Below the pieces are notes generated by a model that did no database searches, was not told where the DNA came from, and worked only from the letters and a program-made list of their open reading frames with translations. From a virus: a stretch of 35,763 nt of DNA. This document shows positions 3,554 to 26,656 of this stretch, piece after piece (the stretch's first letter is position 1; every line of letters begins with the position of its first letter). The stretch is taken from positions 1 through 35,763 of IMG/VR virus record IMGVR_UViG_3300045988_049511; one strand, given 5' to 3'. A program made the translations under genes and the position numbers.

Positions 3554-3687
3554 AAAAATAATTGCATTTTACTTGCATAATGCTTGCATTATACTTATAT
3601 TTGCAATGCGAACGCAACCGATACCGCAAAGATACGGCGACGGTTCACGGCTTGAAATAGCAAATATATATAAATTTTTGAGAACAA
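3554..3687. promoter_or_regulatory. Divergent switch region: operator-like repeats plus Bacteroidetes -7 boxes on both strands
   Basis: TTGCAT at 3562, 3573 and 3584 (11-bp phasing) and TTGCAA at 3601. A perfect palindrome ATAATGC-tt-GCATTAT lies at 3577-3592. TATATTTG (TAnnTTTG) lies at 3596-3603 on the plus strand, and CAAATATA at 3661-3668 gives TATATTTG on the minus strand. Confidence 0.7.
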
Positions 3688-5536: not shown

Positions 5537-5621
5537 GGAGGATTGGCAGAGTGGCTGAATGCACATCACCGCTAACGAGGCAGGCGGCAACGCCTCGGGG
5601 GTTCGAATCCCTCACCCTCCG
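5537..5621 (+). tRNA. Class-II (long variable arm) tRNA-like element, Ser(GCU)-like but with a defective anticodon arm; possible pseudo-tRNA
   Basis: Acceptor GGAGGAT/ACCCTCC pairs 6 of 7 (one A-C). D arm is GCA-GAGTGGCTGAA-TGC. The variable hairpin is GGCG-GCAA-CGCC. The T arm is GGGGG-TTCGAAT-CCCTC. The anticodon arm CATCA-CCGCTAA-CGAGG pairs only 3 of 5, and position 33 is C rather than U. No CCA is encoded. Confidence 0.5.
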
Positions 5622-5751
5622 CAAACCCTTTTGGATTGGTGTTGGCAAGTAGGACGACGATGACGTATGGGATTTACGCATTAGGATATGCGGTGGCAAA
5701 GCGGAAAAGACGCTTGACTTCATCGGACAGATAACGCGAAAGCCAATGGCG

Positions 5752-5771: not shown

Positions 5772-5842
5772 TGATCCTTGGTGTAACGGTAGCACCGCAG
5801 ACTTTGGTTCTGCTGGCCCCGGTTCGAATCCGGGAGGGTCAA
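5772..5842 (+). tRNA. tRNA-Gln (anticodon UUG)
   Basis: Folded by hand. Acceptor TGATCCT/AGGGTCA (U1-A72, one G-U). D arm GTGT-AACGGTA-GCAC. Anticodon arm GCAGA-CTTTGGT-TCTGC. T arm CCCGG-TTCGAAT-CCGGG. Discriminator A. Confidence 0.9.
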
Positions 5843-5862
5843 CAACTCAACACCAACAGACT

Positions 5863-9846: not shown

Positions 9847-10749
9847 ATGGCAAGACCCAACAAGACAGGATTAGACTATTTCCCGTTGGATGTTGACTTC
9901 TTTGCCGATGAAAAGATCGCAGCCATATCCGGAGAATTTGGGATCAAGGGCGAAATCACGGTCATCAAGCTGCTTTGTGCGGTATACCGGAACGGATACT
10001 TCATACTGTGGAATGAGCCGCTGAAATACAAACTGCTCCGTGATCTCCCGGGTGTGAGTCCTGAATTGATCGACCAAATAGTAAACCGCTTGGTCAGGTG
10101 GGGATTCTTCGACGAATCCCTGTTTGACTCGGTGAAGGTTCTGACGAGTCGAGGCATTCAGAAGCGATTCTTCTCCATAACCCGCAGACGCGGATTACCG
10201 CATGACGCAAAGTATCTGTTAGCAGAAAATGGGTGCACCGGAGTTATTGACGACAATAACCCATCCGCAGCGGAATTATTGTCGACAAAAACCCCACAAA
10301 GTAAAGTAAAGAAAAGAATATTATCTACTACTACAACAACGCGCGATGATCAGGTCGATCCCGAGGATTCCGCATATGACCTTTCGGCAACCCCCGAAAA
10401 AGGTTGCGCGGAAAAAGTACCCCCGCAGGTGCCGCCCGGGACGTTCGAATACATTCCTATCGACCAGGTGGCCGCGTGGATGAAGTCGCAGCAGCAATGG
10501 CTGGAGGCGTTTTGCATGAACAATCACATGGATCCGGAGGCCGTGAAGCGTCGCATCGACGAGTTCGTGGCACATTGCATCGACAATGGCGAGACGGACA
10601 AGGACAAGCGCGATTGCATGAGGCACTTCAACAACTGGATGCGCAAACGGCGGGATCAACCCGGGGCATCGACCCGAACGCGTTCGAGATCCACGGCTCA
10701 GCATCCGGCGACACACTTTGACAACAACCAACACTTCGAAGATTTTTAA
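9847..10749 (+). CDS. Replication initiation / replisome organizer (DUF4373, Lin1244-like N-terminal domain)
   Basis: The N-terminus GLDYFPLDVDFFADEKIAAISGEFGIKGEITVIKLLCAVYRNGYF is the pattern I recognise from DUF4373 phage replication proteins. It is followed by the helicase loader gene. Confidence 0.75.
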   Translation: MARPNKTGLDYFPLDVDFFADEKIAAISGEFGIKGEITVIKLLCAVYRNGYFILWNEPLKYKLLRDLPGVSPELIDQIVNRLVRWGFFDESLFDSVKVLTSRGIQKRFFSITRRRGLPHDAKYLLAENGCTGVIDDNNPSAAELLSTKTPQSKVKKRILSTTTTTRDDQVDPEDSAYDLSATPEKGCAEKVPPQVPPGTFEYIPIDQVAAWMKSQQQWLEAFCMNNHMDPEAVKRRIDEFVAHCIDNGETDKDKRDCMRHFNNWMRKRRDQPGASTRTRSRSTAQHPATHFDNNQHFEDF

Positions 10750-11340: not shown

Positions 11341-11693
11341 GACACATCGAATCGAATATTCAGAAGTCGTTCGTCACGTGGTTCCGGCTGCAGTTCCCGG
11401 AATATGCGCTGAACCTGACGAGCGTCCCCAACGGCGGCCTTCGCGGTAAACGTGAAGCCGGAATACTCAAAGCCGAAGGAATGACGGCCGGAGCTGCCGA
11501 TCTCCTGCTCCTGGTTCCGAGGGGCGGATATGGTGCCCTGGGCATCGAGTTCAAGACTACGGAGAAGAGCAGCCGCCAAAGCCCGGCGCAGAAGCGTTGG
11601 CAGGAGGCGTTCGAGAAGGCCGGGAACAAATACGCCATTGCGCGGACCTTTGACGAGGCCGTGGAGGTGGTGAAAAACTATCTGCAGGTATGA
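11337..11693 (+). CDS. VRR-NUC domain nuclease
   Basis: GAADLLLLVP...GIEFKT...SPAQKRWQE matches the VRR-NUC D...ExK...Q..W pattern. ATGA overlap with the upstream gene. Confidence 0.8.
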   Translation: MRHIESNIQKSFVTWFRLQFPEYALNLTSVPNGGLRGKREAGILKAEGMTAGAADLLLLVPRGGYGALGIEFKTTEKSSRQSPAQKRWQEAFEKAGNKYAIARTFDEAVEVVKNYLQV

Positions 11694-12517
11694 GCGATCT
11701 CGATAGGAAAATCAAACAGAGCATCCGACTACTCCAACACTTAGGAGATACGGAGGTCGAGTTGAGCTATTCGGGAGGGAAGGACAGCGATGTTATCCTT
11801 GCGCTGGCTAAGATGGCCGGGATCAACTATCGGGCCATTTACAAGAACACGACTATCGACCCTCCCGGAACCGTAGCCCACTGCAAGGATAACGGCGTGG
11901 AAATAGTGAAGCCAGTTCATACTTTTTTCGAATTGATTCAGCGCAAAGGATTCCCTACCCGTCGTGCTCGGTTCTGCTGCGATAAGTTAAAGGAATACAA
12001 GATACTCGACAACTCTATTCAAGGCATAAGAAGGTCAGAAAGTACCAAGCGGGCGGAGTTATATAAAGAGCCGATAATGTGTCGCATCTATGGGTCGAAG
12101 AAAAACCACGTCAATGTGTTTCTTCCTATCCTGGAATGGACTGACGAAGATGTTAAAAACTTCATAACTCACTACGGCATCAAGTGTCACCCGCTATACT
12201 ACGATGAGAACGGCAAGTTTTGCGTAAACAGACGGCTCGGGTGTATGGGGTGCCCTCTTGCATCCGATAACGGGCTCTCTGACTTCAGAAAATATCCTAA
12301 ACTCGTTCGTCAATGGATTAGAAATGGGATAATATGGTGGAATAGAGAAAGAGAAGGAGAGCTTAAAAGTAAAAAAAAATTTTCCAACATATACGAACTG
12401 TTTATGCAGAATGTGTTCTTCGACAGCTACCAGGAGTTCGCATTGGCCCGAGACGGGATGTTCGGGCGCATGAACTGCAAAGAAAGGCTGGAGGATTATT
12501 TTGGAATTGAGCTATGA
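11690..12517 (+). CDS. PAPS reductase / PP-loop ATPase family protein
   Basis: The SYSGGKDS PP-loop motif lies near the N-terminus. Downstream cysteines are CCDKLKE and CMGCP. The gene looks AT-richer than its neighbours by eye. Confidence 0.8.
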   Translation: MSDLDRKIKQSIRLLQHLGDTEVELSYSGGKDSDVILALAKMAGINYRAIYKNTTIDPPGTVAHCKDNGVEIVKPVHTFFELIQRKGFPTRRARFCCDKLKEYKILDNSIQGIRRSESTKRAELYKEPIMCRIYGSKKNHVNVFLPILEWTDEDVKNFITHYGIKCHPLYYDENGKFCVNRRLGCMGCPLASDNGLSDFRKYPKLVRQWIRNGIIWWNREREGELKSKKKFSNIYELFMQNVFFDSYQEFALARDGMFGRMNCKERLEDYFGIEL

Positions 12518-13456: not shown

Positions 13457-13785
13457 AAACGATCGAAGAAAGAGCCGAAGAGTACGCAAGCCAGTATTGC
13501 GATAGTGACTGCGCATTGTGCGATGATATTTGTGGAAGATTAAGAAGCGGAAGGTCGTTTATCGCCGCAGCCGAGTCGGAGCGCGAAGAACTTACCCGCT
13601 GGCTCGATCCGAATGTGGAGTTGCCGGAAACGGACGTCGAGGTGCTGGTCATGGTTCACGCGGACGGGCACACCTACGACGTGATGCGATACGACAAGTG
13701 CGGATGGTGGCAGAAGGCCCCGGGCGGCGGATGGTGTGCTCCAAACAACGCGCCGATCGGATGGCGGTATATTCACGAACTATAA
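13453..13785 (+). CDS. DUF551-like phage protein
   Basis: The C-terminal WLDPNVELPETDVEVLVMV...GWWQ pattern resembles DUF551. Confidence 0.6.
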   Translation: MKTIEERAEEYASQYCDSDCALCDDICGRLRSGRSFIAAAESEREELTRWLDPNVELPETDVEVLVMVHADGHTYDVMRYDKCGWWQKAPGGGWCAPNNAPIGWRYIHEL

Positions 13786-13795
13786 CCGTAGACGT

Positions 13796-14305
13796 ATGAA
13801 AACATGCGACGAATGCGCAAATTATGAATGCGACAACTTCGATGGGGTAGGACGTTGTAGTATCGACAACGCTATGGTGCTGCACGATGATCCTGCCTGC
13901 AAAGAATTTCACGAACAGCCGGATGACGGCGAAAAAACAACTATGACACTGACAGAATATCAACGGCAGGCCATGACGACGTGCATGCCCACCTGCAACA
14001 ATTTTTCCTACATGATGCTGAACCTCGTGGGAGAGGTCGGCGAACTGGCCTCGAAGGTCGCAAAGGCGATCCGGAAAGGAGAGGCGACGATCTCCGACGA
14101 CCACATGCGGCATCCGTCCACCCGTCGAATCGACGACGAGCTGGAGGAGGCAATGATGCTGGAAGCTGGCGACGTATTGTGGCAACTTGCGGGCCTCTGC
14201 TCGACTATGGGCTGGGACTTGGAAGAGATCGCCCGCATGAACCTCGACAAGCTGGCCAGCAGGCAGCAGAGGGGCGTGATCGACGGGAACGGGGATAATC
14301 GGTAA
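13796..14305 (+). CDS. mazG: MazG-like nucleotide pyrophosphohydrolase with an N-terminal Cys-rich extension
   Basis: LNLVGEVGELASKVAKAIR...EAGDVLWQLAGLCSTMGWDLEEIARMNLDKLASR is the classical MazG helix pair. The N-terminus carries CDEC...C...C...C. Confidence 0.85.
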   Translation: MKTCDECANYECDNFDGVGRCSIDNAMVLHDDPACKEFHEQPDDGEKTTMTLTEYQRQAMTTCMPTCNNFSYMMLNLVGEVGELASKVAKAIRKGEATISDDHMRHPSTRRIDDELEEAMMLEAGDVLWQLAGLCSTMGWDLEEIARMNLDKLASRQQRGVIDGNGDNR

Positions 14306-14316
14306 AACGGGATGAT

Positions 14317-14526
14317 ATGTCGAAAGAATCAACCGAAAAATCAGATTTTATCACCGATGACGAACGCGAGATCCTCGACCTGCTGGCCGATGCTCACAAC
14401 AAGTTCGTCGCACTTGCCGACAAACATCCTACCGCAATGCAGGAATGGACGTTCTATATACACGGGCTTGAATCGCTGATCGAGCACCGTATATGCAAAA
14501 GAGTAGCGAAAGATATTTTCAGATAA
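14317..14526 (+). CDS. Small hypothetical protein
   Basis: 69 aa clean ORF with acidic helical composition. Confidence 0.6.
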   Translation: MSKESTEKSDFITDDEREILDLLADAHNKFVALADKHPTAMQEWTFYIHGLESLIEHRICKRVAKDIFR

Positions 14527-14535
14527 CAGACAGAC

Positions 14536-15081
14536 ATGAAACGCGAAATCAAATTCAGAGGAAAGCGACTCGACAACGGAGAGTTGGTGGTAGGTAGCCT
14601 ACTGCAAGACGACTATGGTACCTGCATGATCGTGGAGTTCGTAGATCACCATGAACAATGGCACGAAGTAGACCCGGGAACCATCGGCCAATTCACGGGG
14701 CTGAAAGACAAGGACGGGCGGGATATTTACGAGGGGGACATTATCGAATGCTTTTATATGAACCTTTCGTATCAACAGAAAGGTAATTATCCTCCACCAA
14801 ACATTGAAGTTGAAGAATATGAAGTAGTCAGAAATGTCGATGTAGTCAAGTTTGAGCATGGGTCATTTAATTTTTGTGGTCTTCCGATCGGATTTGATAA
14901 GCTGACGGGAGGAGAATGTGAACCTGATTACAATACGTTGAATGTTCGCCTTAAAAGTATCTGGGATAATAATATTGATAACATTCGCGAAGAATACCCA
15001 TATCTTACAGTAGAAAATTTCTACAATTACAATATCATCGGCAACATCCACGACAATCCGGAATTACTCGAAACAGAATAA
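14536..15081 (+). CDS. YopX family protein
   Basis: IKFRGKRLDNGELVVG...VDPGTIGQFTGLKDKDGRDIYEGDII is the YopX signature. Confidence 0.85.
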   Translation: MKREIKFRGKRLDNGELVVGSLLQDDYGTCMIVEFVDHHEQWHEVDPGTIGQFTGLKDKDGRDIYEGDIIECFYMNLSYQQKGNYPPPNIEVEEYEVVRNVDVVKFEHGSFNFCGLPIGFDKLTGGECEPDYNTLNVRLKSIWDNNIDNIREEYPYLTVENFYNYNIIGNIHDNPELLETE

Positions 15082-15150
15082 AAAAAGAGGCAACCCTGAA
15101 GGATCACCCCTGCCCAAAACAAAGATAGTGATTTATTTCGGGTTTGCAAC

Positions 15151-15438
15151 ATGACGAAGCGAGAACTTATCGACAACATTGCAAGGGACGGACTGGTCGA
15201 GCGGTTGGTGGCAAACGTCTGCCATCGCCGCCATCGCTCCCTCTCGGACCTCGTACAGATGGTCTACGAGGCCCTGCTCAACTACGACGAAGAGAAGCTG
15301 ATGCGCATCCATAGACGGGGTGCGCTCAACTTTTTTATTGTACGGATTATCGAGAATTTATATTTCTCACGGACGAGTCCCTATTATCGGCAGATTCGGA
15401 GATTCGCCCAGCATAGCGACATCTTGAAAGATGAATGA
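15151..15438 (+). CDS. Sigma-70/ECF-like region 2 domain protein (N-terminal half of a split sigma factor)
   Basis: LSDLVQMVYEALLNYDEEKL...GALNFFIVRIIENLYFSRTSPYYRQ resembles regions 2.1-2.4. The ORF ends in TGA within ATGAATGA. Confidence 0.65.
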   Translation: MTKRELIDNIARDGLVERLVANVCHRRHRSLSDLVQMVYEALLNYDEEKLMRIHRRGALNFFIVRIIENLYFSRTSPYYRQIRRFAQHSDILKDE

Positions 15439-15694
15439 CGATCGCCACATTCGGCTGCGGCTCCTCGATGAGGAGTACACGGCCAGCAAGGGAGTGTTCG
15501 ACGAAGACGACTCCCGCGTACGCCGTTGCAAGGCGGCGCTCCGAAGGTTGTCAGACTCAGACCGCCGTCTCTTCATCCTGTATGCCGACACGGGAAGTGT
15601 CCGCAAGCTGTCGCAGACTCTCGGTGTCAGCAAGTCGACGGTGCAGAACCGAGTATCCGAAATTCGTCGCAAACTTAAAAAGAGCATGAAATGA
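15431..15694 (+). CDS. Sigma-70 region 4 HTH domain protein (C-terminal half of a split sigma factor)
   Basis: ALRRLSDSDRRLFILYADTGSVRKLSQTLGVSKSTVQNRVSEIRRKLKK is a region 4.2 pattern. The ATG overlaps the upstream stop by 8 nt. Its own frame has a TGA at 15425-15427. Confidence 0.7.
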   Translation: MNDDRHIRLRLLDEEYTASKGVFDEDDSRVRRCKAALRRLSDSDRRLFILYADTGSVRKLSQTLGVSKSTVQNRVSEIRRKLKKSMK

Positions 15695-16029
15695 GACCAT
15701 ATTTTGACCTTCTCCTCCTCGCCGTTGTCATCGTCTATATCATCGACGTCAGCGGCGTAATGGAAAGTATCAAGGGCGCATTATCCCGATGGCTCGGAGC
15801 CAAGGTGTCCAGGATTCGCCCTTTCGACTGCTCGCTCTGCATGATCTGGTGGGCGGGCATCATCTACATCATCGCCGTCGGAGAATTCTCGCTGCCCACT
15901 CTCTCGTGGGTGGCGGTTCTGTCGGCCATGTCGACCCGCATCCATCGGGCCATCCAGTTCCTGCAGGATGCGGCCGACGCATTCTTTGATTTCCTCACCT
16001 CCAAAATAAACGGCCATGGCAACGAATAA
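15691..16029 (+). CDS. Membrane protein, unknown function
   Basis: 112 aa with three hydrophobic helices and an ATGA overlap with the sigma region-4 gene. Confidence 0.7.
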   Translation: MRPYFDLLLLAVVIVYIIDVSGVMESIKGALSRWLGAKVSRIRPFDCSLCMIWWAGIIYIIAVGEFSLPTLSWVAVLSAMSTRIHRAIQFLQDAADAFFDFLTSKINGHGNE

Positions 16030-16396
16030 GAATCTGCGTGACATATCGAAGCTGCCGCCGGAGGAGCATCGCAGGCTTTCCAGCAAGGGCGGGAAGGCCT
16101 CACAGAAGGCACTGCGCGAGTTGAAGACCATGCGCGAGTATGCCCGGGAGCTCGCGGCCATGAAGACGACGATCGTCAACCAGGACGGCACCGAGCAGGA
16201 GGTTCCCTACCTGGCGGCGGTCGTGGCCTCGCAGTACAAGCAGGCTATCGACAAGTCAGATACCCGGGCGGCGGAGTTCATCGCAACACTCCTCGACGAG
16301 TTGAAGCAGGCGCAAGTCATTGCCCCGAGCTTTGTGATTCAGGTCGGGGATGCCAAGCTGGCCGAGGAGCTGGCGAAGGCCGTAAAGGACAAATGA
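16016..16396 (+). CDS. Putative terminase small subunit (by position)
   Basis: 126 aa with a basic N-terminus. It lies immediately upstream of the large terminase. Confidence 0.45.
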   Translation: MATNKNLRDISKLPPEEHRRLSSKGGKASQKALRELKTMREYARELAAMKTTIVNQDGTEQEVPYLAAVVASQYKQAIDKSDTRAAEFIATLLDELKQAQVIAPSFVIQVGDAKLAEELAKAVKDK

Positions 16397-16397
16397 C

Positions 16398-17600
16398 ATG
16401 ATCACGGAAGCTACATTCTCCCGCAACTTCCGTGAGAAGCTGCTGCCGGCGTGGAACCTGCATCCCCGCTACCTGGATTCGTGCGGAGGTGCCAGATCGG
16501 GGAAGACATACTCGATTCTGCAGATGCTTGTATTGAAGGCCCTGGCCGAGGCTGCCGACGGGAGCCCGGCGAAGATCACATCTGTGGTATCTGAGACTCT
16601 TCCCCACTTGAAGCGAGGAGCCATCCGTGACTTCAAGAGCATCATGCAGAGCTGGGAGATATGGAATGACCGCCAATGGAACCGAACCGACAACATCTTC
16701 ACCTTCCCCAACGGAGGCATGATCGAGTTCTTTTCGGCAGACAGCCCCGGCAAGGTGCACGGCCCGGCCCGAGACCGGCTCTTCATCAACGAGGCGCAGA
16801 ACGTCGACTACGAAACGGCCCGCCAGCTCTTCATCCGAACCCGGGACCGCATCATCATCGACTACAACCCCGTGCAGGAGTTCTGGGTGCATGAAAACAT
16901 CCAGGGACGGCCCGAGTGCGTGTCGATACATTCGACGTACAAGGACAACGATTTTTTGACTCCCGAACAGGTAGCCGAGATCGAGAGCAACAAGGGATCG
17001 GGCAACTGGTGGCGGGTGTACGGTGAGGGCAAGATCGGGCAGGCCGAAGGCGTGATCTTCGACTTCACGCAGATCGAAGCCATGCCCGAGTCGTCGGATA
17101 TGGTCGAGACATATGGCATCGACTTCGGATTCACCAACGACCCGACGGTGATTGTCCACGTCAAGGTGCACACCGGGCGAAAGGAGATCTACGTCGACCA
17201 GCTCGAATACCGAACCGGAATGCTCAACCGGGACATCATCCGAACGCTCGATGCGTACAAGGTGCCGAAGCGGACGATCCCTATCTTCGCGGATGCTGCA
17301 GAGCCCAAGAGCATCGCCGAGATTGCGCAGGCCGGATTCAACTGCAAGCCGAGCTACAAGGCGACACGCAAGGCCGAGCAGATCGCCTTCATGCAGCAGT
17401 ATAAAATGTTCATCACGAAGCGGAGCGTCGAGGGCATCAAGGAGGCCCGCAACTACTGCTGGGCGAAAGACAAGGACGGGCGCCCGCTGAACGAGCCGCA
17501 GGCATTCGCCGACCATTTCATGGATGCGATGCGATACGCTGCCTATTCACCCTTTGCCGACTTCCGAAAGTCGGGACACTACAAGATCATCAACAGATAG
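16398..17600 (+). CDS. terL: Terminase large subunit (PBSX/Terminase_3-like)
   Basis: Walker A is CGGARSGKTYS. It has the ATPase plus nuclease two-domain length and DHFMDAMRYA near the C-terminus. Confidence 0.9.
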   Translation: MITEATFSRNFREKLLPAWNLHPRYLDSCGGARSGKTYSILQMLVLKALAEAADGSPAKITSVVSETLPHLKRGAIRDFKSIMQSWEIWNDRQWNRTDNIFTFPNGGMIEFFSADSPGKVHGPARDRLFINEAQNVDYETARQLFIRTRDRIIIDYNPVQEFWVHENIQGRPECVSIHSTYKDNDFLTPEQVAEIESNKGSGNWWRVYGEGKIGQAEGVIFDFTQIEAMPESSDMVETYGIDFGFTNDPTVIVHVKVHTGRKEIYVDQLEYRTGMLNRDIIRTLDAYKVPKRTIPIFADAAEPKSIAEIAQAGFNCKPSYKATRKAEQIAFMQQYKMFITKRSVEGIKEARNYCWAKDKDGRPLNEPQAFADHFMDAMRYAAYSPFADFRKSGHYKIINR

Positions 17601-17606
17601 CAGACT

Positions 17607-18236
17607 ATGATAACCAACTACAACAGCCTCACGGTAGGCAAGTATGAGGCCCTGCTTCGAGCACGGGCCGACCACGAAGGCGATACGAACGAACTGAACC
17701 TTCACGTGCTGTCGATTCTCTCTGGCATGACCGTCGACCAGCTCCTCGATCTGAAGGTACCGGAGTTCCGGGCCATGATGGACCGGGCGGGATTCCTTTG
17801 CACGGCACCTCGGCCGTCGGAGGTAGCCAGGCAGTACCGGTTCGGGGATCTGACCCTTGTACCCGTGACCGATGTCCGGAAGATGACGGCGGCGCAGTAC
17901 ATCGACTTTCAGAATTTCTCAAACGCCGGCGAAGGTCGACAGGCGGAACTACTCTCCTGCTTCCTGGTGCCGAAGGGCATGAAGTACAACGACGGCTACG
18001 ACATCCTCGAAGTACAGCAGGCAATCCGGGATTTCATGCCGGTGACGGCTGCTTTGGGGTTGCTCGCTTTTTTTTTGAGAAGATTGCATCGGTCAACAAT
18101 CAATACCCTACGCTCTTCGGTAAAGAAGATGCCGAAGAACCCGCAGACGGCGGAGGCTATCCAGGCGACGAACCGGTTGATCCGTTCTCTGCAAAGTGGG
18201 GGTGGATTGCCAATGTCGATGCCGTTTCTGAATTGA
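17607..18236 (+). CDS. Hypothetical protein with a T9 slippery run; the -1 frame extends to 18361 (tail-assembly-chaperone-like two-product gene?)
   Basis: The zero frame gives ...LGLLAFFLRRLH... and the -1 frame gives ...FFFEKIASVNNQYPTLFGKEDAEEP...EWIRTH. The T run lies at 18068-18076. Confidence 0.65.
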   Translation: MITNYNSLTVGKYEALLRARADHEGDTNELNLHVLSILSGMTVDQLLDLKVPEFRAMMDRAGFLCTAPRPSEVARQYRFGDLTLVPVTDVRKMTAAQYIDFQNFSNAGEGRQAELLSCFLVPKGMKYNDGYDILEVQQAIRDFMPVTAALGLLAFFLRRLHRSTINTLRSSVKKMPKNPQTAEAIQATNRLIRSLQSGGGLPMSMPFLN

Positions 18237-18846: not shown

Positions 18847-18894
18847 CCGCGGACGAAATCCGCGGATTGCATATTTACCAAAAAATAGACGAGT

Positions 18895-19866
18895 ATGGCA
18901 ATAACACCTATTTGGCAGGATCACACCGTGAGTGTGCAGACAGAAGAAGGGTCGATTTCTTATATCATCAAGTGCGACGGGACCACTATCTACGCAGGTA
19001 AAGCCTACAAACGACCAGGTGCTTCCGAGATATTGTTTGGCATTGGAGACGTATGCGCTCCTTTCTTGTCTTCGAATGCCGAAATAGCGAAGGCCACCAC
19101 GGGGTTCATGGCTATCAATGAAATGCAAAGGATATTTGTCGTATATGATTTGTCCGGGACGGTACTTGCGACCGTAGATTTCTCCAACGATTGGAGTTAC
19201 AAAGGCGCCACCCCAAACTTCGCATCGGACCCGGTACAGCGTAAAATTGACCCAAGGCAGCTTATGCTGGCCTCGATGTATGAGGCGTTCAAAGTGATTG
19301 CGCAGATCGAAGGATCTACGCCTCAGACGCAAACACTCTACGATGGAGATCCCGCATCGGGCGTGGCTTGCGGCGACACAGCGTTGTTGTCAAATGCGAC
19401 ATCCGTCACTATATCCGCGAACACGACGGGCGGCACCGAGATCATGACCTACGAGGTCGTGAAGCCATGCGCCCGATACGTGCTGTACTACGTCAACGCC
19501 TTCGGGGGCTGGGATTCGCTTCTGATGACGGGCAACGACAAGCGAGTCGACAACTACACCCGTGCGACGTACAAGAAGGTATACTCACCCGCAGATCTGT
19601 CGGACCGAGGCACGGTGAATTACCGAAACGACATTGAGCGGACGATCTCGCTCGTTACCGACTGGCTGACGGACGAGGAGTCGGCCAGGATGCACCATCT
19701 TTTCGGGTCGACAAATGTATACCTGCACGACCTCGTGGAGAACATCATCCGGCCCGTGACACTCACGGCCAAGTCGTGGACCGAAAAGACCTTCCGCAAC
19801 AACGGGGCCAAGCTCGTGAATTATCAGATAGACGTAACCATTGCGCAGGATTTCGTGAGAATATGA
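18895..19866 (+). CDS. Tail/baseplate structural protein (unassigned)
   Basis: 323 aa with an ATGA overlap with the large tail protein gene downstream. Confidence 0.6.
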   Translation: MAITPIWQDHTVSVQTEEGSISYIIKCDGTTIYAGKAYKRPGASEILFGIGDVCAPFLSSNAEIAKATTGFMAINEMQRIFVVYDLSGTVLATVDFSNDWSYKGATPNFASDPVQRKIDPRQLMLASMYEAFKVIAQIEGSTPQTQTLYDGDPASGVACGDTALLSNATSVTISANTTGGTEIMTYEVVKPCARYVLYYVNAFGGWDSLLMTGNDKRVDNYTRATYKKVYSPADLSDRGTVNYRNDIERTISLVTDWLTDEESARMHHLFGSTNVYLHDLVENIIRPVTLTAKSWTEKTFRNNGAKLVNYQIDVTIAQDFVRI

Positions 19867-23144: not shown

Positions 23145-23240
23145 AGGCCTTATTCCACCGAAGTGAAACAAGGCTATCCGCTTGGACGAGACTCCAAGCA
23201 AAGGCAAAGATAAACATTTTTCGTAAAAAACCAAAAAATA

Positions 23241-25445
23241 ATGGCAGAAGATATCAAACGAGTGATCGAGGTGGATGCAACGTCCAGCTCGAAGACTATC
23301 CGGGAACTCCGGGAGGAGATCGAGAAACTGAAAAAGACCCTCTCCGAGTTGACGGCCGGGACCAAGGAGTTCGCCGAGGCGCAGGCCCGAATGTCGCAGG
23401 CGCAGGAGGAGGTCAACCAGGCGATGGAGATCAGCGCCAAAAACGAGGATGCGCAGGTCAAGAGTATGCAAGAACTGCGGGCGATCATCGACGAGAACAC
23501 GGGGTCGTTCGGCTTCCTCGTGGCCCGTATGCAGGAGTTGAAGGCGGGCATCGACGCTACCAATGCCCGGATCAAGCAGATCACCAAGGACTACGACGAA
23601 GGCCGGATGGCCGTCGACGACTACAACCAGGAGCTGCAGGAGAACCTGGAAGAGTTGCAAAAACTCCGCACGGAGCAGGGCGATGTCCGCTCCTCGCTGA
23701 ACGCCTCGACAAAGGCCCTGCTTGCGGCCAAGGGATCCTACGTCGAGATGTCGCAGACGCTGGGCCAGCTCCGCAATGCCTACCGGCAGTTGAGCAAGGA
23801 GCAGCGGGAGGGAGCTGTCGGAACCGAAATGCTGGGGCAGATCAAGCTGCTCGACGCGGAGCTGAAGGAGGTCGACGCCTCAATGGGCAATTTCCAGCGA
23901 AATGTAGGCGGATACGAAGAGGCCCTGAAGCAGGTGTTGCCTCCGCAGGCCGGGCTGATTGTCGACCTCGGGAAGTTGAGCGTCGAGGGTGGCGGTATTC
24001 CGTCGTTGTTCACCGGCATGAAGGACAGCATCGTTGGCATGACAAAGGCGGCTGTCGCTTTCATTGCCACGCCGCTGGGCGCCACGCTTACGGCATTGGC
24101 CGCTGCCGCCGCTGCGGCGTTCGCTCTGTTCAACGCTCGCAACAAGGAGATCGAGAAGCAGGCCGAAGCCAGCGCCAAAGCATTGGAGAAGCAGAAGGAG
24201 CAGATGGAGCGATTCGACCTTGAAATATCCCGAGAAGTGGAACTGCTTCGGGCAGACGGGAAAGAGCAAGAGGCGAATGCGTTGGCTCGAAGATCGGTTA
24301 CCGATGCGATGAACAAGGCACAGCAGGCTGTGGATGAATATCGCGAGAAGTACAATCAGATGTCCGCCAAGGAGCAAAAGGCAAATGCTGAAACTTTGAA
24401 GGGGTACGAAGACGCCTTGCAGGCCCGCATCGACGCCTGGGAAGAGGTGATCCACGAGGATGAAGTACGCCGCCGGACGGAGTTGAGAGAGGAGCGCGAG
24501 CAGAACGAGAAGCTGAAAGAAGAATGGGCAAAGGCTGCCGCAGAGAAGCAGCGCATCGCCGAAGAGACGAATGCAGCTATCCGGGAGGCCAACGCCGCCT
24601 TCCGGGATGAAACGGCCCTGATGCAAGCCGAACAGGGCGCCGGCACGCAGAGCGGGGATCTCGCCCTGGCGCAGGAGCAGTTCCGGCAGGAGCTGGCCGC
24701 CTTCGAGACGATGGTCGACGAGAAGCAGATCGCCGAGGAACTGGCGATGGAGCGCCGCAAACTGATGCTAGAACAATACGGGCAGGAGATTGCCGATATC
24801 CAGGCCAAGTATCTGAAGCAGGAGAACGACCAGCTTCTCAAAGCACTCGACGAAGAAATGGCCGCCGAATTTGAGGCAGACAAGGATCTCGTTTCGCAGG
24901 AATTGAAGAACTCCAAAGAACGCCAGAAGATAGCCGATGCCGAGTACAAGCACAAGCAGATGATCACCCAGCAGACCGGGGCACTCCTGCAAGCCGGTGC
25001 GCAGCTTGCAGGCGAGAGCACGGCAGTAGGCAAGGCAATGGCTGTGGCTGCGGCAACCATATCGACCTATCAGGCTGCACAAGCGGCCTACCAGGCGGCT
25101 TTCATGCCGGTGCCCACCTATGCAAGTCCGGTATTGGGAGCCATCAACATGGCGGCAGCCATTGCCACGGGTTTGGCAAACATCAAGAGCATTCTTTCGG
25201 TCGACTCTTCGGGTGGCACGGGATACGGGTCGTCCAGCTCCACCGGTGCCACGGTTACCACCCCGGCGGTCGTCACACCTCCGGCCGTGGTGCAGGAGGT
25301 TGAAACGGTTCGCTCGCTCACCGGTGCCAGCGAGGAGGAACGACTCAATCAGATGGCCAGCAGTCAGCGCGTCTACCTGGTCTATTCGGACGTCGAGCAG
25401 GCCGGGAGGCGAGTGCAGGTCCAGCAGTCGGAGACGAGTTTCTAA
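23241..25445 (+). CDS. Tape measure protein
   Basis: 734 aa with long coiled coils, an Ala-rich hydrophobic segment (AVAFIATPLGATLTALAAAAAAAFALF), a GNFQRNVGGY motif and a hydrophobic C-terminal region. Confidence 0.8.
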   Translation: MAEDIKRVIEVDATSSSKTIRELREEIEKLKKTLSELTAGTKEFAEAQARMSQAQEEVNQAMEISAKNEDAQVKSMQELRAIIDENTGSFGFLVARMQELKAGIDATNARIKQITKDYDEGRMAVDDYNQELQENLEELQKLRTEQGDVRSSLNASTKALLAAKGSYVEMSQTLGQLRNAYRQLSKEQREGAVGTEMLGQIKLLDAELKEVDASMGNFQRNVGGYEEALKQVLPPQAGLIVDLGKLSVEGGGIPSLFTGMKDSIVGMTKAAVAFIATPLGATLTALAAAAAAAFALFNARNKEIEKQAEASAKALEKQKEQMERFDLEISREVELLRADGKEQEANALARRSVTDAMNKAQQAVDEYREKYNQMSAKEQKANAETLKGYEDALQARIDAWEEVIHEDEVRRRTELREEREQNEKLKEEWAKAAAEKQRIAEETNAAIREANAAFRDETALMQAEQGAGTQSGDLALAQEQFRQELAAFETMVDEKQIAEELAMERRKLMLEQYGQEIADIQAKYLKQENDQLLKALDEEMAAEFEADKDLVSQELKNSKERQKIADAEYKHKQMITQQTGALLQAGAQLAGESTAVGKAMAVAAATISTYQAAQAAYQAAFMPVPTYASPVLGAINMAAAIATGLANIKSILSVDSSGGTGYGSSSSTGATVTTPAVVTPPAVVQEVETVRSLTGASEEERLNQMASSQRVYLVYSDVEQAGRRVQVQQSETSF

Positions 25446-25465
25446 CAGCCCGGATGACGGGTCAA

Positions 25466-25492
25466 GGTCGCAGGAAACTGCGGCCTTTTTTT
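25466..25492 (+). terminator. Rho-independent terminator after the tape measure gene
   Basis: GGTCGCAG-GAAA-CTGCGGCC forms an 8-bp stem (one G-U) with a GNRA loop, followed by T7 (25486-25492). Confidence 0.8.
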
Positions 25493-25537
25493 GTGCCCTG
25501 TTGGACAGAAAACGGGCAATGAATATTTCCCGGTAGA

Positions 25538-26656
25538 ATGGCAACTTTTAATCGAAATATACCCTTCTACTGGGCAGAATTGAGCGACAACGAGGACGGC
25601 ATGGTGTGCGTATCTCTTGTCGACGATCCGGCCGTTGATCGCAACTTCATGGCATTCTCGGCCGAGAAGAAGATTCCCGTGTGCGCGATCTCCAACGAGG
25701 AGAAGCGACTCGTGCGCGGTGTTCTCATGCGTGCCGACTTCCCGATCTATCGCGTCGCCCCCACCGGTGAGGAGTTCTACATCATCTTCTCGGCTCCTAC
25801 GATTCGCCGCATGACCGAGCGGTTTCTCGAACAGGGGAACCAGGGTAACGTCAACACAATGCACATCCCCGGATCCGACGTCGATGGGGTCAACCTCGTG
25901 CAGCTCTTCATCAAGGACAAATCGGCCGGCATCGACCCGGCGGGCTTCGAGGACGTGGAGGACGGCAGCCTCTTCGGCGAGTATCACGTGGCCAATGATG
26001 ACGTGTGGGAGGACATTAAAGCCGGGAAGTTCAAAGGCTTCTCCATCGAGGGGATCTTCTCTGTGTCCAAGGATTCACATCAGTTCAATAAACAACAAAT
26101 CAACGAAATGGCAAAACTTGAAAAACTCAAGACTCGGCTGGCAAAGCTCCTGGCCGAGTTCGGCGTAGTGTCCACCGACAAGGGCACGCTCTACTGGGAC
26201 GGAGACGAGGACTTGAAGGCCGGCGACATGGTGCACAAAGAGTCCGAAAGCGGTGAGCGCAGCGCGGCTCCCGATGGCCAGTACACCACGGAGGATGGAA
26301 AAACCATCACCGTCGTGGATGGCAAGGTCTCCGAGATCGTCGACCCGAAGGCAGAGGTTGACGGCGCGGGCGAAACGCCTCCCGCAGGCGGGACCGACCC
26401 GATGGGCCCGGAAGGCGACCCGTCGTCCCGTGACGCCGAAATGCAGGAGATCCGCAAGGAGATCTCCGACATCCGCGACATGGTCGAAAAGCTCATGGGC
26501 GCGATTGAATCCACCAAATCCGACGTGAAGGCCATGAAGCAGGCCCCGGCCGCTTCGTCGGCACACGAGGAGTTCAGAAACCTCACTCCCGGCAAGACCG
26601 GAGATTCGCGGCTCGATCACCTGGCCGCAGTCGTAGGCGCGAACGTGAAAAAGTAA
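25538..26656 (+). CDS. XkdF-like prohead protease fused to a scaffold-like C-terminal domain
   Basis: The N-terminal ~185 aa (VDDPAVDRNFMAF...NVNTMHIPGS...GSLFGEYHV...WEDIKAGKFKGFSIEG) resembles XkdF. The C-terminal half is acidic coiled coil. The gene lies directly upstream of the capsid gene. Confidence 0.75.
   Translation: MATFNRNIPFYWAELSDNEDGMVCVSLVDDPAVDRNFMAFSAEKKIPVCAISNEEKRLVRGVLMRADFPIYRVAPTGEEFYIIFSAPTIRRMTERFLEQGNQGNVNTMHIPGSDVDGVNLVQLFIKDKSAGIDPAGFEDVEDGSLFGEYHVANDDVWEDIKAGKFKGFSIEGIFSVSKDSHQFNKQQINEMAKLEKLKTRLAKLLAEFGVVSTDKGTLYWDGDEDLKAGDMVHKESESGERSAAPDGQYTTEDGKTITVVDGKVSEIVDPKAEVDGAGETPPAGGTDPMGPEGDPSSRDAEMQEIRKEISDIRDMVEKLMGAIESTKSDVKAMKQAPAASSAHEEFRNLTPGKTGDSRLDHLAAVVGANVKK

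Follow-up and report, generated by a model that had tools for sequence, protein, structure and literature searches.

We analysed a 35,763-nt stretch of viral DNA (IMG/VR virus record IMGVR_UViG_3300045988_049511, positions 1 to 35,763; hereafter the window) and found that two short, overlapping open reading frames (ORFs) on its plus strand probably encode the two subunits of a naturally split sigma factor of the extracytoplasmic function (ECF)-like, group 4-type kind, carried by a temperate Alistipes-type phage. ORF1 (15151..15438; ATG at 15151, TGA at 15436-15438; 95 amino acids, aa) is the predicted region 2-like subunit and ORF2 (15431..15694; ATG at 15431, TGA at 15692-15694; 87 aa) the region 4 subunit. 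The two are separate genes, both under purifying selection. From homology, predicted fold, gene linkage and a candidate promoter we infer that this natural two-subunit, ECF-like sigma factor occurs in a large phage family that carries no annotation.

ORF2 is a sigma-70 region 4 helix-turn-helix (HTH) domain, as had been read from the sequence before: its match to Pfam Sigma70_r4_2 lies above the cut-off of that family (28.6 bits against 25.7, E = 1.1e-6). It also matches the sigma70-ECF profile TIGR02937 (2.2e-8, profile positions 105-164 of 165), the PHROG sigma-factor families in their C-terminal parts and the NCBIfam entry NF005385, 'positive control sigma-like factor' (1.1e-4), and homologues bear the name 'sigma factor-like helix-turn-helix DNA-binding protein [Alistipes sp.]'. 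Residues 1-28 of ORF2 form an acidic, linker-like segment with the conserved pattern EEY..G.FDEDD, which is followed by the region 4 HTH.

ORF1 is probably a divergent sigma region 2, an assignment made from natural fusions, transitive Sigma70_r2 matches and the modelled folds of ORF1 and of a fused relative. In several relatives both parts are found on a single chain, namely in P0022 and P0072 (166 aa), P0103 (210 aa), P0118 (192 aa), P0134 (190 aa) and P0158 (226 aa). The order is that of single-chain ECF sigma factors, with the ORF1 domain at the N-terminus, then a linker, and at the C-terminus a region 4-type HTH of the form ...DRxxFLLYAExGSLRKLGxxLGVSxxTIRxxIxRIRxKL. The linker of P0103 holds the entire conserved N-terminal segment of the ORF2-type proteins, and the break point is therefore internal to the connector that joins region 2 to region 4. 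A more distant and uniformly fused clade of IMG/VR loci (L055-L069) is recognised by the hidden Markov model (HMM) of the ORF1 family at 1e-17 to 1e-19. Within this clade the N-terminal part of the L063 protein matches Pfam Sigma70_r2 (24.6 bits, cut-off 24; E = 2.1e-5), and the L055 protein matches it with 18.1 bits (0.0024) over residues 12-72, corresponding to profile positions 6-67 of 71. Weaker Sigma70_r2 matches were found at the same place in P0118 and P0134. Sigma70_r2 is the best N-terminal match in four of nine fused relatives, one of them above threshold. The L055 alignment spans the counterparts of the best-conserved ORF1 residues (D33, L34, Q36, Y39 and L43; F61/F62, R65 and N69).

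Regarding the fold, the AlphaFold2 model of ORF1, built on an alignment of 104 sequences, shows a six-helix domain with a mean predicted local distance difference test score (pLDDT) of 94.3. Its 16 best matches among the predicted viral structures of BFVD (probability 0.89-1.0, template modelling (TM) score 0.65-0.78 normalised to ORF1) are all phage proteins of 160-232 aa, aligned over the N-terminal half, about half of the chain. The names given to several of them are 'RNA polymerase sigma-70 region 2', 'RpoE ... sigma24 homolog', 'Sigma-70 family RNA polymerase sigma factor' or ECF. The model of the fused P0103 (pLDDT 87.9) gave a list of 50 best PDB matches made up exclusively of sigma factors, including ECF sigma factors of M. 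tuberculosis, CnrH, RpoE, SigW, sigma-L, sigma-H, sigma-E, AlgU, sigma-28 and primary sigma factors. Most of these alignments cover 206-257 columns and thus both domains, and four of the 50 are fragments with region 4 only. The original prediction had seen region 2-like sequence in the first ORF, and the colinear fusions, the Sigma70_r2 matches of fused homologues, the BFVD matches and the all-sigma PDB list support it indirectly.

If the two proteins act as a sigma factor, the promoters they serve may be recognisable in the family. When the sequences preceding ORF1-type genes in 23 distinct loci were anchored on a shared ATATTT box, GGT(A/G)AC was seen exactly 16 nt upstream of the box, giving the candidate promoter G(G/T)(A/G)AC-N16-ATATTT (class A). 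In 543 kb of family loci the form [AG]AC-N16-ATATTT is present in 26 copies on the gene strand and in two on the opposite strand, compared with 2-10 copies (about 5) at any one of the other spacings between 10 and 23. For the stricter G[GT][AG]AC form the counts are 13 at N16 and 0-3 at other spacings. Most copies are placed directly upstream of the sigma operon, in at least 17 loci. This position before the sigma operon of most other family members suggests autoregulation, the usual layout for ECF sigma factors. In the window the exact GGAC-N16-ATATTT is found only twice, both times in an intergenic region, on the coding strand and just before late genes. One candidate (18851..18876, plus strand) lies 19 nt before a 323-aa late gene at 18895, and the other (25503..25528, plus strand) lies 10 nt before the head-protease-like gene at 25538 and follows a terminator-like hairpin at 25464-25487. 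The 18851 site is kept as GCGGAC-N16-ATATTTCCC in L008/L009 and L014-L018, with a variable 16-nt spacer. The motif may belong to the ORF1/ORF2 sigma factor or to a host sigma. A further copy with one mismatch, GTAC-N16-ATATTT, lies inside ORF1 (15340-15365, plus strand), 66 nt before the ORF2 start; it may be a coincidence, the ATATTT arising from the codons of a conserved NLYFS motif, or an internal promoter.

The original prediction proposed a search for a shared motif upstream of late operons, for example before 16016, 23241 and 25538. The class A motif was found before 25538 and in addition before 18895; the gene at 23241 shares a different motif with ORF1 (class B). The class B motif CAAAGATA-GTG-ATTTATTTCG is a candidate promoter or operator of the sigma operon (15120..15140, plus strand, 10 nt before the ORF1 start), and its second copy, CAAAGATA-AAC-ATTTTTCG (23205..23223, plus strand), lies upstream of the 734-aa tape-measure-like gene at 23241. 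The form common to both is CAAAGATA-N3-ATTT(A/T)TTCG, and both copies stand downstream of hairpins (15086-15111 and 23147-23174, respectively). The exact CAAAGATA occurs three times on the plus strand of the window, at 3627, 15120 and 23205; allowing one mismatch, 29 occurrences were counted against 20 expected, which is no enrichment, and interest is confined to the exact copies between genes. A class B motif upstream of ORF1 is also present in L008/9, L010, L012, L015 and L017-19, and the genes behind the two copies (15151 and 23241) are among those shared with the L012 element described below. A scan of the window for E. coli-type sigma-70 promoters was uninformative (6 found, 7.2 expected).

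Regarding the ATATTT box itself, we considered that it might be a plain host -7 box. In the Alistipes DNA around related prophages, host promoters carry a Bacteroidetes-type TAnnTTTG box and hence end in TTTG, while in the phage box a G follows TTT at only one of the 23 sites; we rejected the plain host box on this difference, which is suggestive, not decisive.

Several results weigh against reading the pair as a sigma factor. As a single sequence ORF1 matched nothing in Pfam, PHROGs or NCBIfam, a 12-sequence profile of its family found no profile match, and a 104-sequence profile found none among the PDB sequences; hhalign of the family against E. coli RpoE (an approximate sequence) gave nothing, and Foldseek of the ORF1 model against the PDB returned no significant match (best E = 4.3). 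The Sigma70_r2 scores of the fused relatives lie at or below the curated threshold, and the PDB matches of P0103 have E-values of 0.014-0.9 (none ≤ 0.001) and low TM scores with no single strong match, as can be expected for a pair of domains that differ in orientation. Concerning the candidate promoter, its -10 part resembles the host -7 box, its -35 part shares bases in many loci with the stop codon of a conserved gene upstream, and the sigma operon of the window's own clade lacks the class A motif and carries CAAAGATAGTGATTT.TTTCGGGTTTGCAAC upstream instead. Direct profile searches, which the original prediction had named as a check on ORF1, neither confirm nor refute region 2. In the GenBank 'phages' collection the region 14500-16400 matched nothing at the DNA level and ORF1 nothing meaningful at the protein level, and a further large protein search with the ORF1-family profile A2 gave only unannotated proteins of about 100 aa and no bridge to annotated sigma factors.

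These points would fit another arrangement, in which ORF2 is an ordinary HTH activator of late genes, comparable to RinA/ArpU-type activators and acting together with the host primary sigma, and ORF1 is an accessory partner, for example a co-activator, chaperone or inhibitor, instead of a region 2 in contact with RNA polymerase and the -10 element. The missing sigma profile match and PDB fold match of ORF1 on its own and the likeness of the -10 part to the host box are what such an activator would lead one to expect, and ORF2 indeed also scores against many generic HTH families. We nevertheless regard it as unlikely, because the fused relatives show the exact order and size of ECF sigma factors, Sigma70_r2 is their best N-terminal match in the proportion given above, the ORF1 fold fits the N-terminal half of annotated phage sigma factors, the PDB list of the fused relative holds sigma factors alone, with most alignments spanning both domains, and the Sigma70_r2 alignment of L055 covers the positions of the most conserved ORF1 residues. 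As a separate observation, the best and insignificant PDB match of the ORF1 model (E = 4.3, TM 0.40) was chain C of 9n9q, an 'RNA-guided transcription complex', which is also found at rank 18 among the sigma-factor matches of P0103.

A split sigma factor further demands that the two ORFs are indeed separate genes. The window sequence bears out the arrangement described originally, two ORFs in different frames with an 8-nt overlap: the frame of ORF2 is +1 relative to that of ORF1, and in the junction ATGAATGA (15431..15438, plus strand; ...AAA GAT GAA TGA overlapping ATG AAT GAC) the start codon of ORF2 overlaps the stop codon of ORF1. Likewise, a TGA at 15425-15427 closes the ORF2 frame, so both frames are jointly open only from 15428 to 15438 (11 nt), a stretch with no homopolymer beyond AAA. 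Folding of the RNA around the junction was no better than that of shuffled sequence (z = 0.01). This overlap of start and stop codons permits translational coupling of ORF1 and ORF2.

With one HMM per domain, we then searched 78 loci and the window, translated from stop to stop. Wherever the sequence of a locus continues, the ORF1-type domain either has an ORF2-type domain immediately behind it in a different frame or forms a single frame with it. This does not hold for L056 and L076, whose sequence stops there, or for L077, a remnant at the edge of an element; in addition, L070 was missed by the HMM and is visibly fused, and ORF1 of L010/L011 is internally deleted. The junctions of the split loci come in 44 distinct sequences, in relative frame +1 or +2, comprising ATGA overlaps, overlaps of 8, 11, 14, 17 and 23 nt and spacers of 2-6 nt. 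The junction of L012 is identical to that of the window (ATGAATGA), L008 (71% and 64% identity in the two halves) has TAA, a 5-nt spacer and ATG in the other relative frame, and L003 (47% and 31% identity) has a TGA-gtgc-GTG junction. Close relatives, whose state had been named as a check on the prediction, are thus all split. The lengths of the halves are well conserved: ORF1 homologues with 69-99% identity have 94-95 aa, the few longer calls being due to the choice of upstream start codons, and ORF2 homologues with 64-98% identity have 86-96 aa and a common N-terminus, the 96-aa forms differing at the C-terminus only. Compared with L012, L008 and L019, the ratio of nonsynonymous to synonymous substitution rates (dN/dS) of ORF1 is 0.14-0.23 and that of ORF2 0.08-0.22, as expected for purifying selection.

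These data leave little room for a single protein made by programmed ribosomal frameshifting or another form of recoding at the overlap, which would yield a normal single-chain sigma factor. The overlap, the +1 frame of ORF2, the sequence AAA GAT GAA TGA, which ends in a stop like some +1 frameshift sites, and the fused relatives, which show that a single chain works, might all be taken to suggest it; yet the spacers of relatives contain intervening stops, the second gene is in either frame with many overlap lengths, the ORF2 frame of the window is closed by TGA two codons before the ATG, there is neither a slippery run nor a stimulatory RNA structure, and the ORF2 N-terminus is conserved from its ATG onwards. 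We consider recoding very improbable. Least credible of all is a sequencing or assembly indel, judged unlikely already in the original prediction, or a frameshift that recently inactivated a sigma gene in decay: neighbouring frames can be separated or joined by a change of one base and the related element L010/L011 carries a decayed ORF1, but the same split is found in dozens of clusters and in independent assemblies (ENA, Logan, JGI and NCBI), with diverse junctions and with constraint on both halves. Taken together, the conserved split, the varied junctions, the purifying selection and the lack of RNA structure effectively exclude assembly error, a pseudogene and programmed frameshifting, and fit two translationally coupled genes.

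The family to which the split sigma factor belongs is large. HMMER with the ORF1 profile over 1.84 billion representatives gave 1038 clusters (defined at 50% identity) with E ≤ 1e-3, 314 of them at E ≤ 1e-10; the family members listed have no Pfam domain and no functional name. The best 150 matches contain 146 new proteins, of which 141 are 84-133 aa long and five are fused, so about 97% stand alone. Among the family clusters gathered, six of 290 are fused. Each fused lineage has split proteins as its nearest relatives (for example, P0103 is 60% and P0158 66% identical to split members); in the L055-L069 clade all members are fused. Most simply, this would go back to a single fission event in a single-chain phage ECF-like sigma factor, with a few re-fusions afterwards. 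Some of the fusions seen only once could be sequencing errors; those of P0022 and P0072 comprise two clusters and occur on several contigs. Four loci (L073-L076) are on short contigs binned into metagenome-assembled genomes (MAGs) from outside the Bacteroidota (Coprococcus, Sphaerochaeta, Eubacteriales and Candidatus Enterousia), probably by mis-binning of phage contigs.

Based on these findings we propose the following mode of action. Through the tight or overlapping junction, translation of one half would be coupled to that of the other, and both would tend to be made in equal amounts. ORF1 would bind the clamp helices of the beta' subunit of the host RNA polymerase and read and open the -10 element, and ORF2 would bind the beta flap and read the -35 element, with the acidic N-terminal segment of ORF2 replacing part of the connector. 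We draw these contacts from the layout of ECF sigma factors on RNA polymerase, where regions 2 and 4 sit at the sites used by those of primary sigma factors and the connector follows a defined path (PMC6372665). Only a polymerase carrying both halves would start at G(G/T)(A/G)AC-N16-ATATTT promoters, and strict co-occurrence of both genes is consistent with such mutual dependence. In the window promoters of this kind would drive the tail-region operon at 18895 and the head protease/capsid operon at 25538. The pair makes up the first genes of the packaging/morphogenesis block, and for this reason it presumably acts as the switch to late transcription.

The closest precedent is SigO-RsoA (YvrI-YvrHa) of B. 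subtilis, in which sigma region 4 and region 2 reside on separate proteins that jointly direct transcription of a small number of operons, their own among them (PMC8103513). SigO-RsoA is given as the example of 'split domains' in a survey of ECF sigma factors, which remarks that it did not capture phage ECFs (PMC7826278). Both systems consist of two small proteins, one for region 2 and one for region 4, encoded in one operon; SigO-RsoA activates its own operon, and here the candidate promoter precedes the sigma operon in most family members. In contrast, SigO-RsoA is encoded on the chromosome of a Firmicute and serves in stress, whereas the pair described here would serve as a phage late switch. 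The gene order also differs, as judged from the operon name yvrI-yvrHa: the region 4 gene comes first there, while here region 2 precedes region 4, colinear with a single-chain sigma factor. Tight or overlapping junctions, more than 1000 clusters and naturally fused members further set the phage family apart.

In phage T4, for which the original prediction had drawn a loose analogy, the tasks of a sigma factor at late genes are divided between two small proteins, the region 2-like gp55 and gp33, which sits at the beta flap. However, gp33 does not bind DNA, T4 late promoters have no -35 element and activation needs the sliding clamp gp45. Our ORF2 has a full region 4 HTH, the candidate promoter is bipartite and there is no sign of homology to gp55/gp33. 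The analogy stays loose since gp33 does not read DNA, and SigO-RsoA is the better precedent. T4 transcription has been reviewed (PMC2988021).

Single-chain phage ECF-like sigma factors and the PBSX factor Xpf are likely the ancestors in kind of the split pair. As in single-chain ECF sigma factors, region 2 and region 4 add up to about 180 aa, ORF2 matches ECF profiles, the modelled folds match those of phage ECF-like and PDB ECF sigma factors, and the candidate -35 element has an AAC/GAC core with a 16-nt spacer; with the phage ECF-like sigma factors and Xpf the pair shares its placement ahead of the late genes. It differs from single-chain ECF sigma factors in that the chain is broken within the connector that threads RNA polymerase in the latter (PMC6372665), that region 2 is too divergent for the Pfam model, and that next to ORF2 there is just a small membrane protein instead of a recognisable anti-sigma domain. 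A literature search for split sigma factors in phages or Bacteroidetes returned only SigO-RsoA and general ECF papers, in line with the original prediction, which was aware of no such case in Bacteroidetes phages; as coverage of subscription journals was incomplete, this absence is weak evidence.

Natural two-subunit sigma factors are known mainly from SigO-RsoA, and if our assignment is right a large family of them exists in gut and rumen Bacteroidales phages, with a region 2 half that is currently a 'hypothetical protein' without a Pfam family. It would account for late-gene switching in these abundant temperate phages and improve the annotation of the ORF1-type gene, which is now without a functional label. 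The natural split and fused pairs would moreover serve for probing the purpose of the sigma connector, and the split pairs could be ready two-input transcriptional parts for Bacteroides engineering.

Regarding the genomic surroundings, the annotation of the flanking genes places the pair between the replication/early genes and the packaging/morphogenesis genes, at the module boundary assigned to it in the original prediction. Upstream lie a replisome organizer gene starting at 9847, a PAPS reductase-like gene (11690-12517, plus strand, PHROG 424), a MazG-like pyrophosphatase gene (13736-14305, plus strand, PHROG 229) and the gene of a YopX-domain protein (14536-15081, plus strand, Pfam 1.4e-15). 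Downstream follow the large terminase (16398-17600), the 734-aa tape-measure-like gene (start 23241), the head-protease-like gene (start 25538), a capsid-like gene (start 26676) and the portal (start 28858). The divergent early region carries tRNA-Ser(GCT) and tRNA-Gln(TTG) genes (5537-5622 and 5772-5843, respectively, plus strand). An integrase gene is present at 217-1491 and we therefore regard the phage as temperate; ORF2 homologues are named as Alistipes proteins and occur on contigs as long as 748 kb, which places them in prophages. The phage appears to be temperate, Alistipes-type and siphovirus-like.

The third gene of the conserved cassette encodes a 112-aa predicted membrane protein (15691..16029, plus strand) and overlaps the ORF2 stop codon in an ATGA. 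Homologues of about 100-112 aa are located directly 3' of the region 4 gene in 32 of 57 distinct downstream ORFs and share the motif IYIVDxSGFTxSWR...PFDCxxCMTWW, which includes a CxxC. The protein gave no Pfam or PHROG match and no anti-sigma domain was found in it; an anti-sigma-like regulator or partner and a holin-like protein are both possibilities. In the distant fused clade (L055-L066) the gene after the sigma gene encodes not this membrane protein but a cysteine-rich, possibly zinc-binding protein of about 124 aa (CNxCPHFRKSxSQCKKCGC), for example at L055:1814-2190.

The sigma pair is also found on an integrative element of about 12 kb (L012:4480-16600; L013 is the same element). Its genes comprise an integrase, HTH_17, Lin1244_N, a DnaB-like helicase, the region 2/region 4 pair and genes of 181, 320 and 404 aa, with no terminase, capsid or portal among them, and it resembles a phage satellite or else a reduced prophage in which the sigma factor has been retained. 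It matches the window in the sigma pair (15151-15694, 77-78% identity), in the 209-aa gene after the terminase (17607-18236, 69%) and in the 734-aa tape-measure-like gene (23241-25445, 92% and 62%, split in two), and there are no further matches to the window. One may speculate, though we think it rather improbable, that the split sigma factor consists of exchangeable parts traded by mobile elements, such that the region 4 subunit of a satellite pairs with the region 2 subunit of a helper phage, or the reverse, and redirects the polymerase to hybrid promoters, with the downstream membrane protein perhaps adding a third level of control. A further related element, L010:9930-10264 and L011 (Alistipes MAG GCA_048346935.1), has an in-frame remnant of ORF1, MTKRELIDSI joined to GNSLRMSDELRN, next to an intact ORF2. 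This remnant form is present on 11 contigs and represents either decay or an element with region 4 only.

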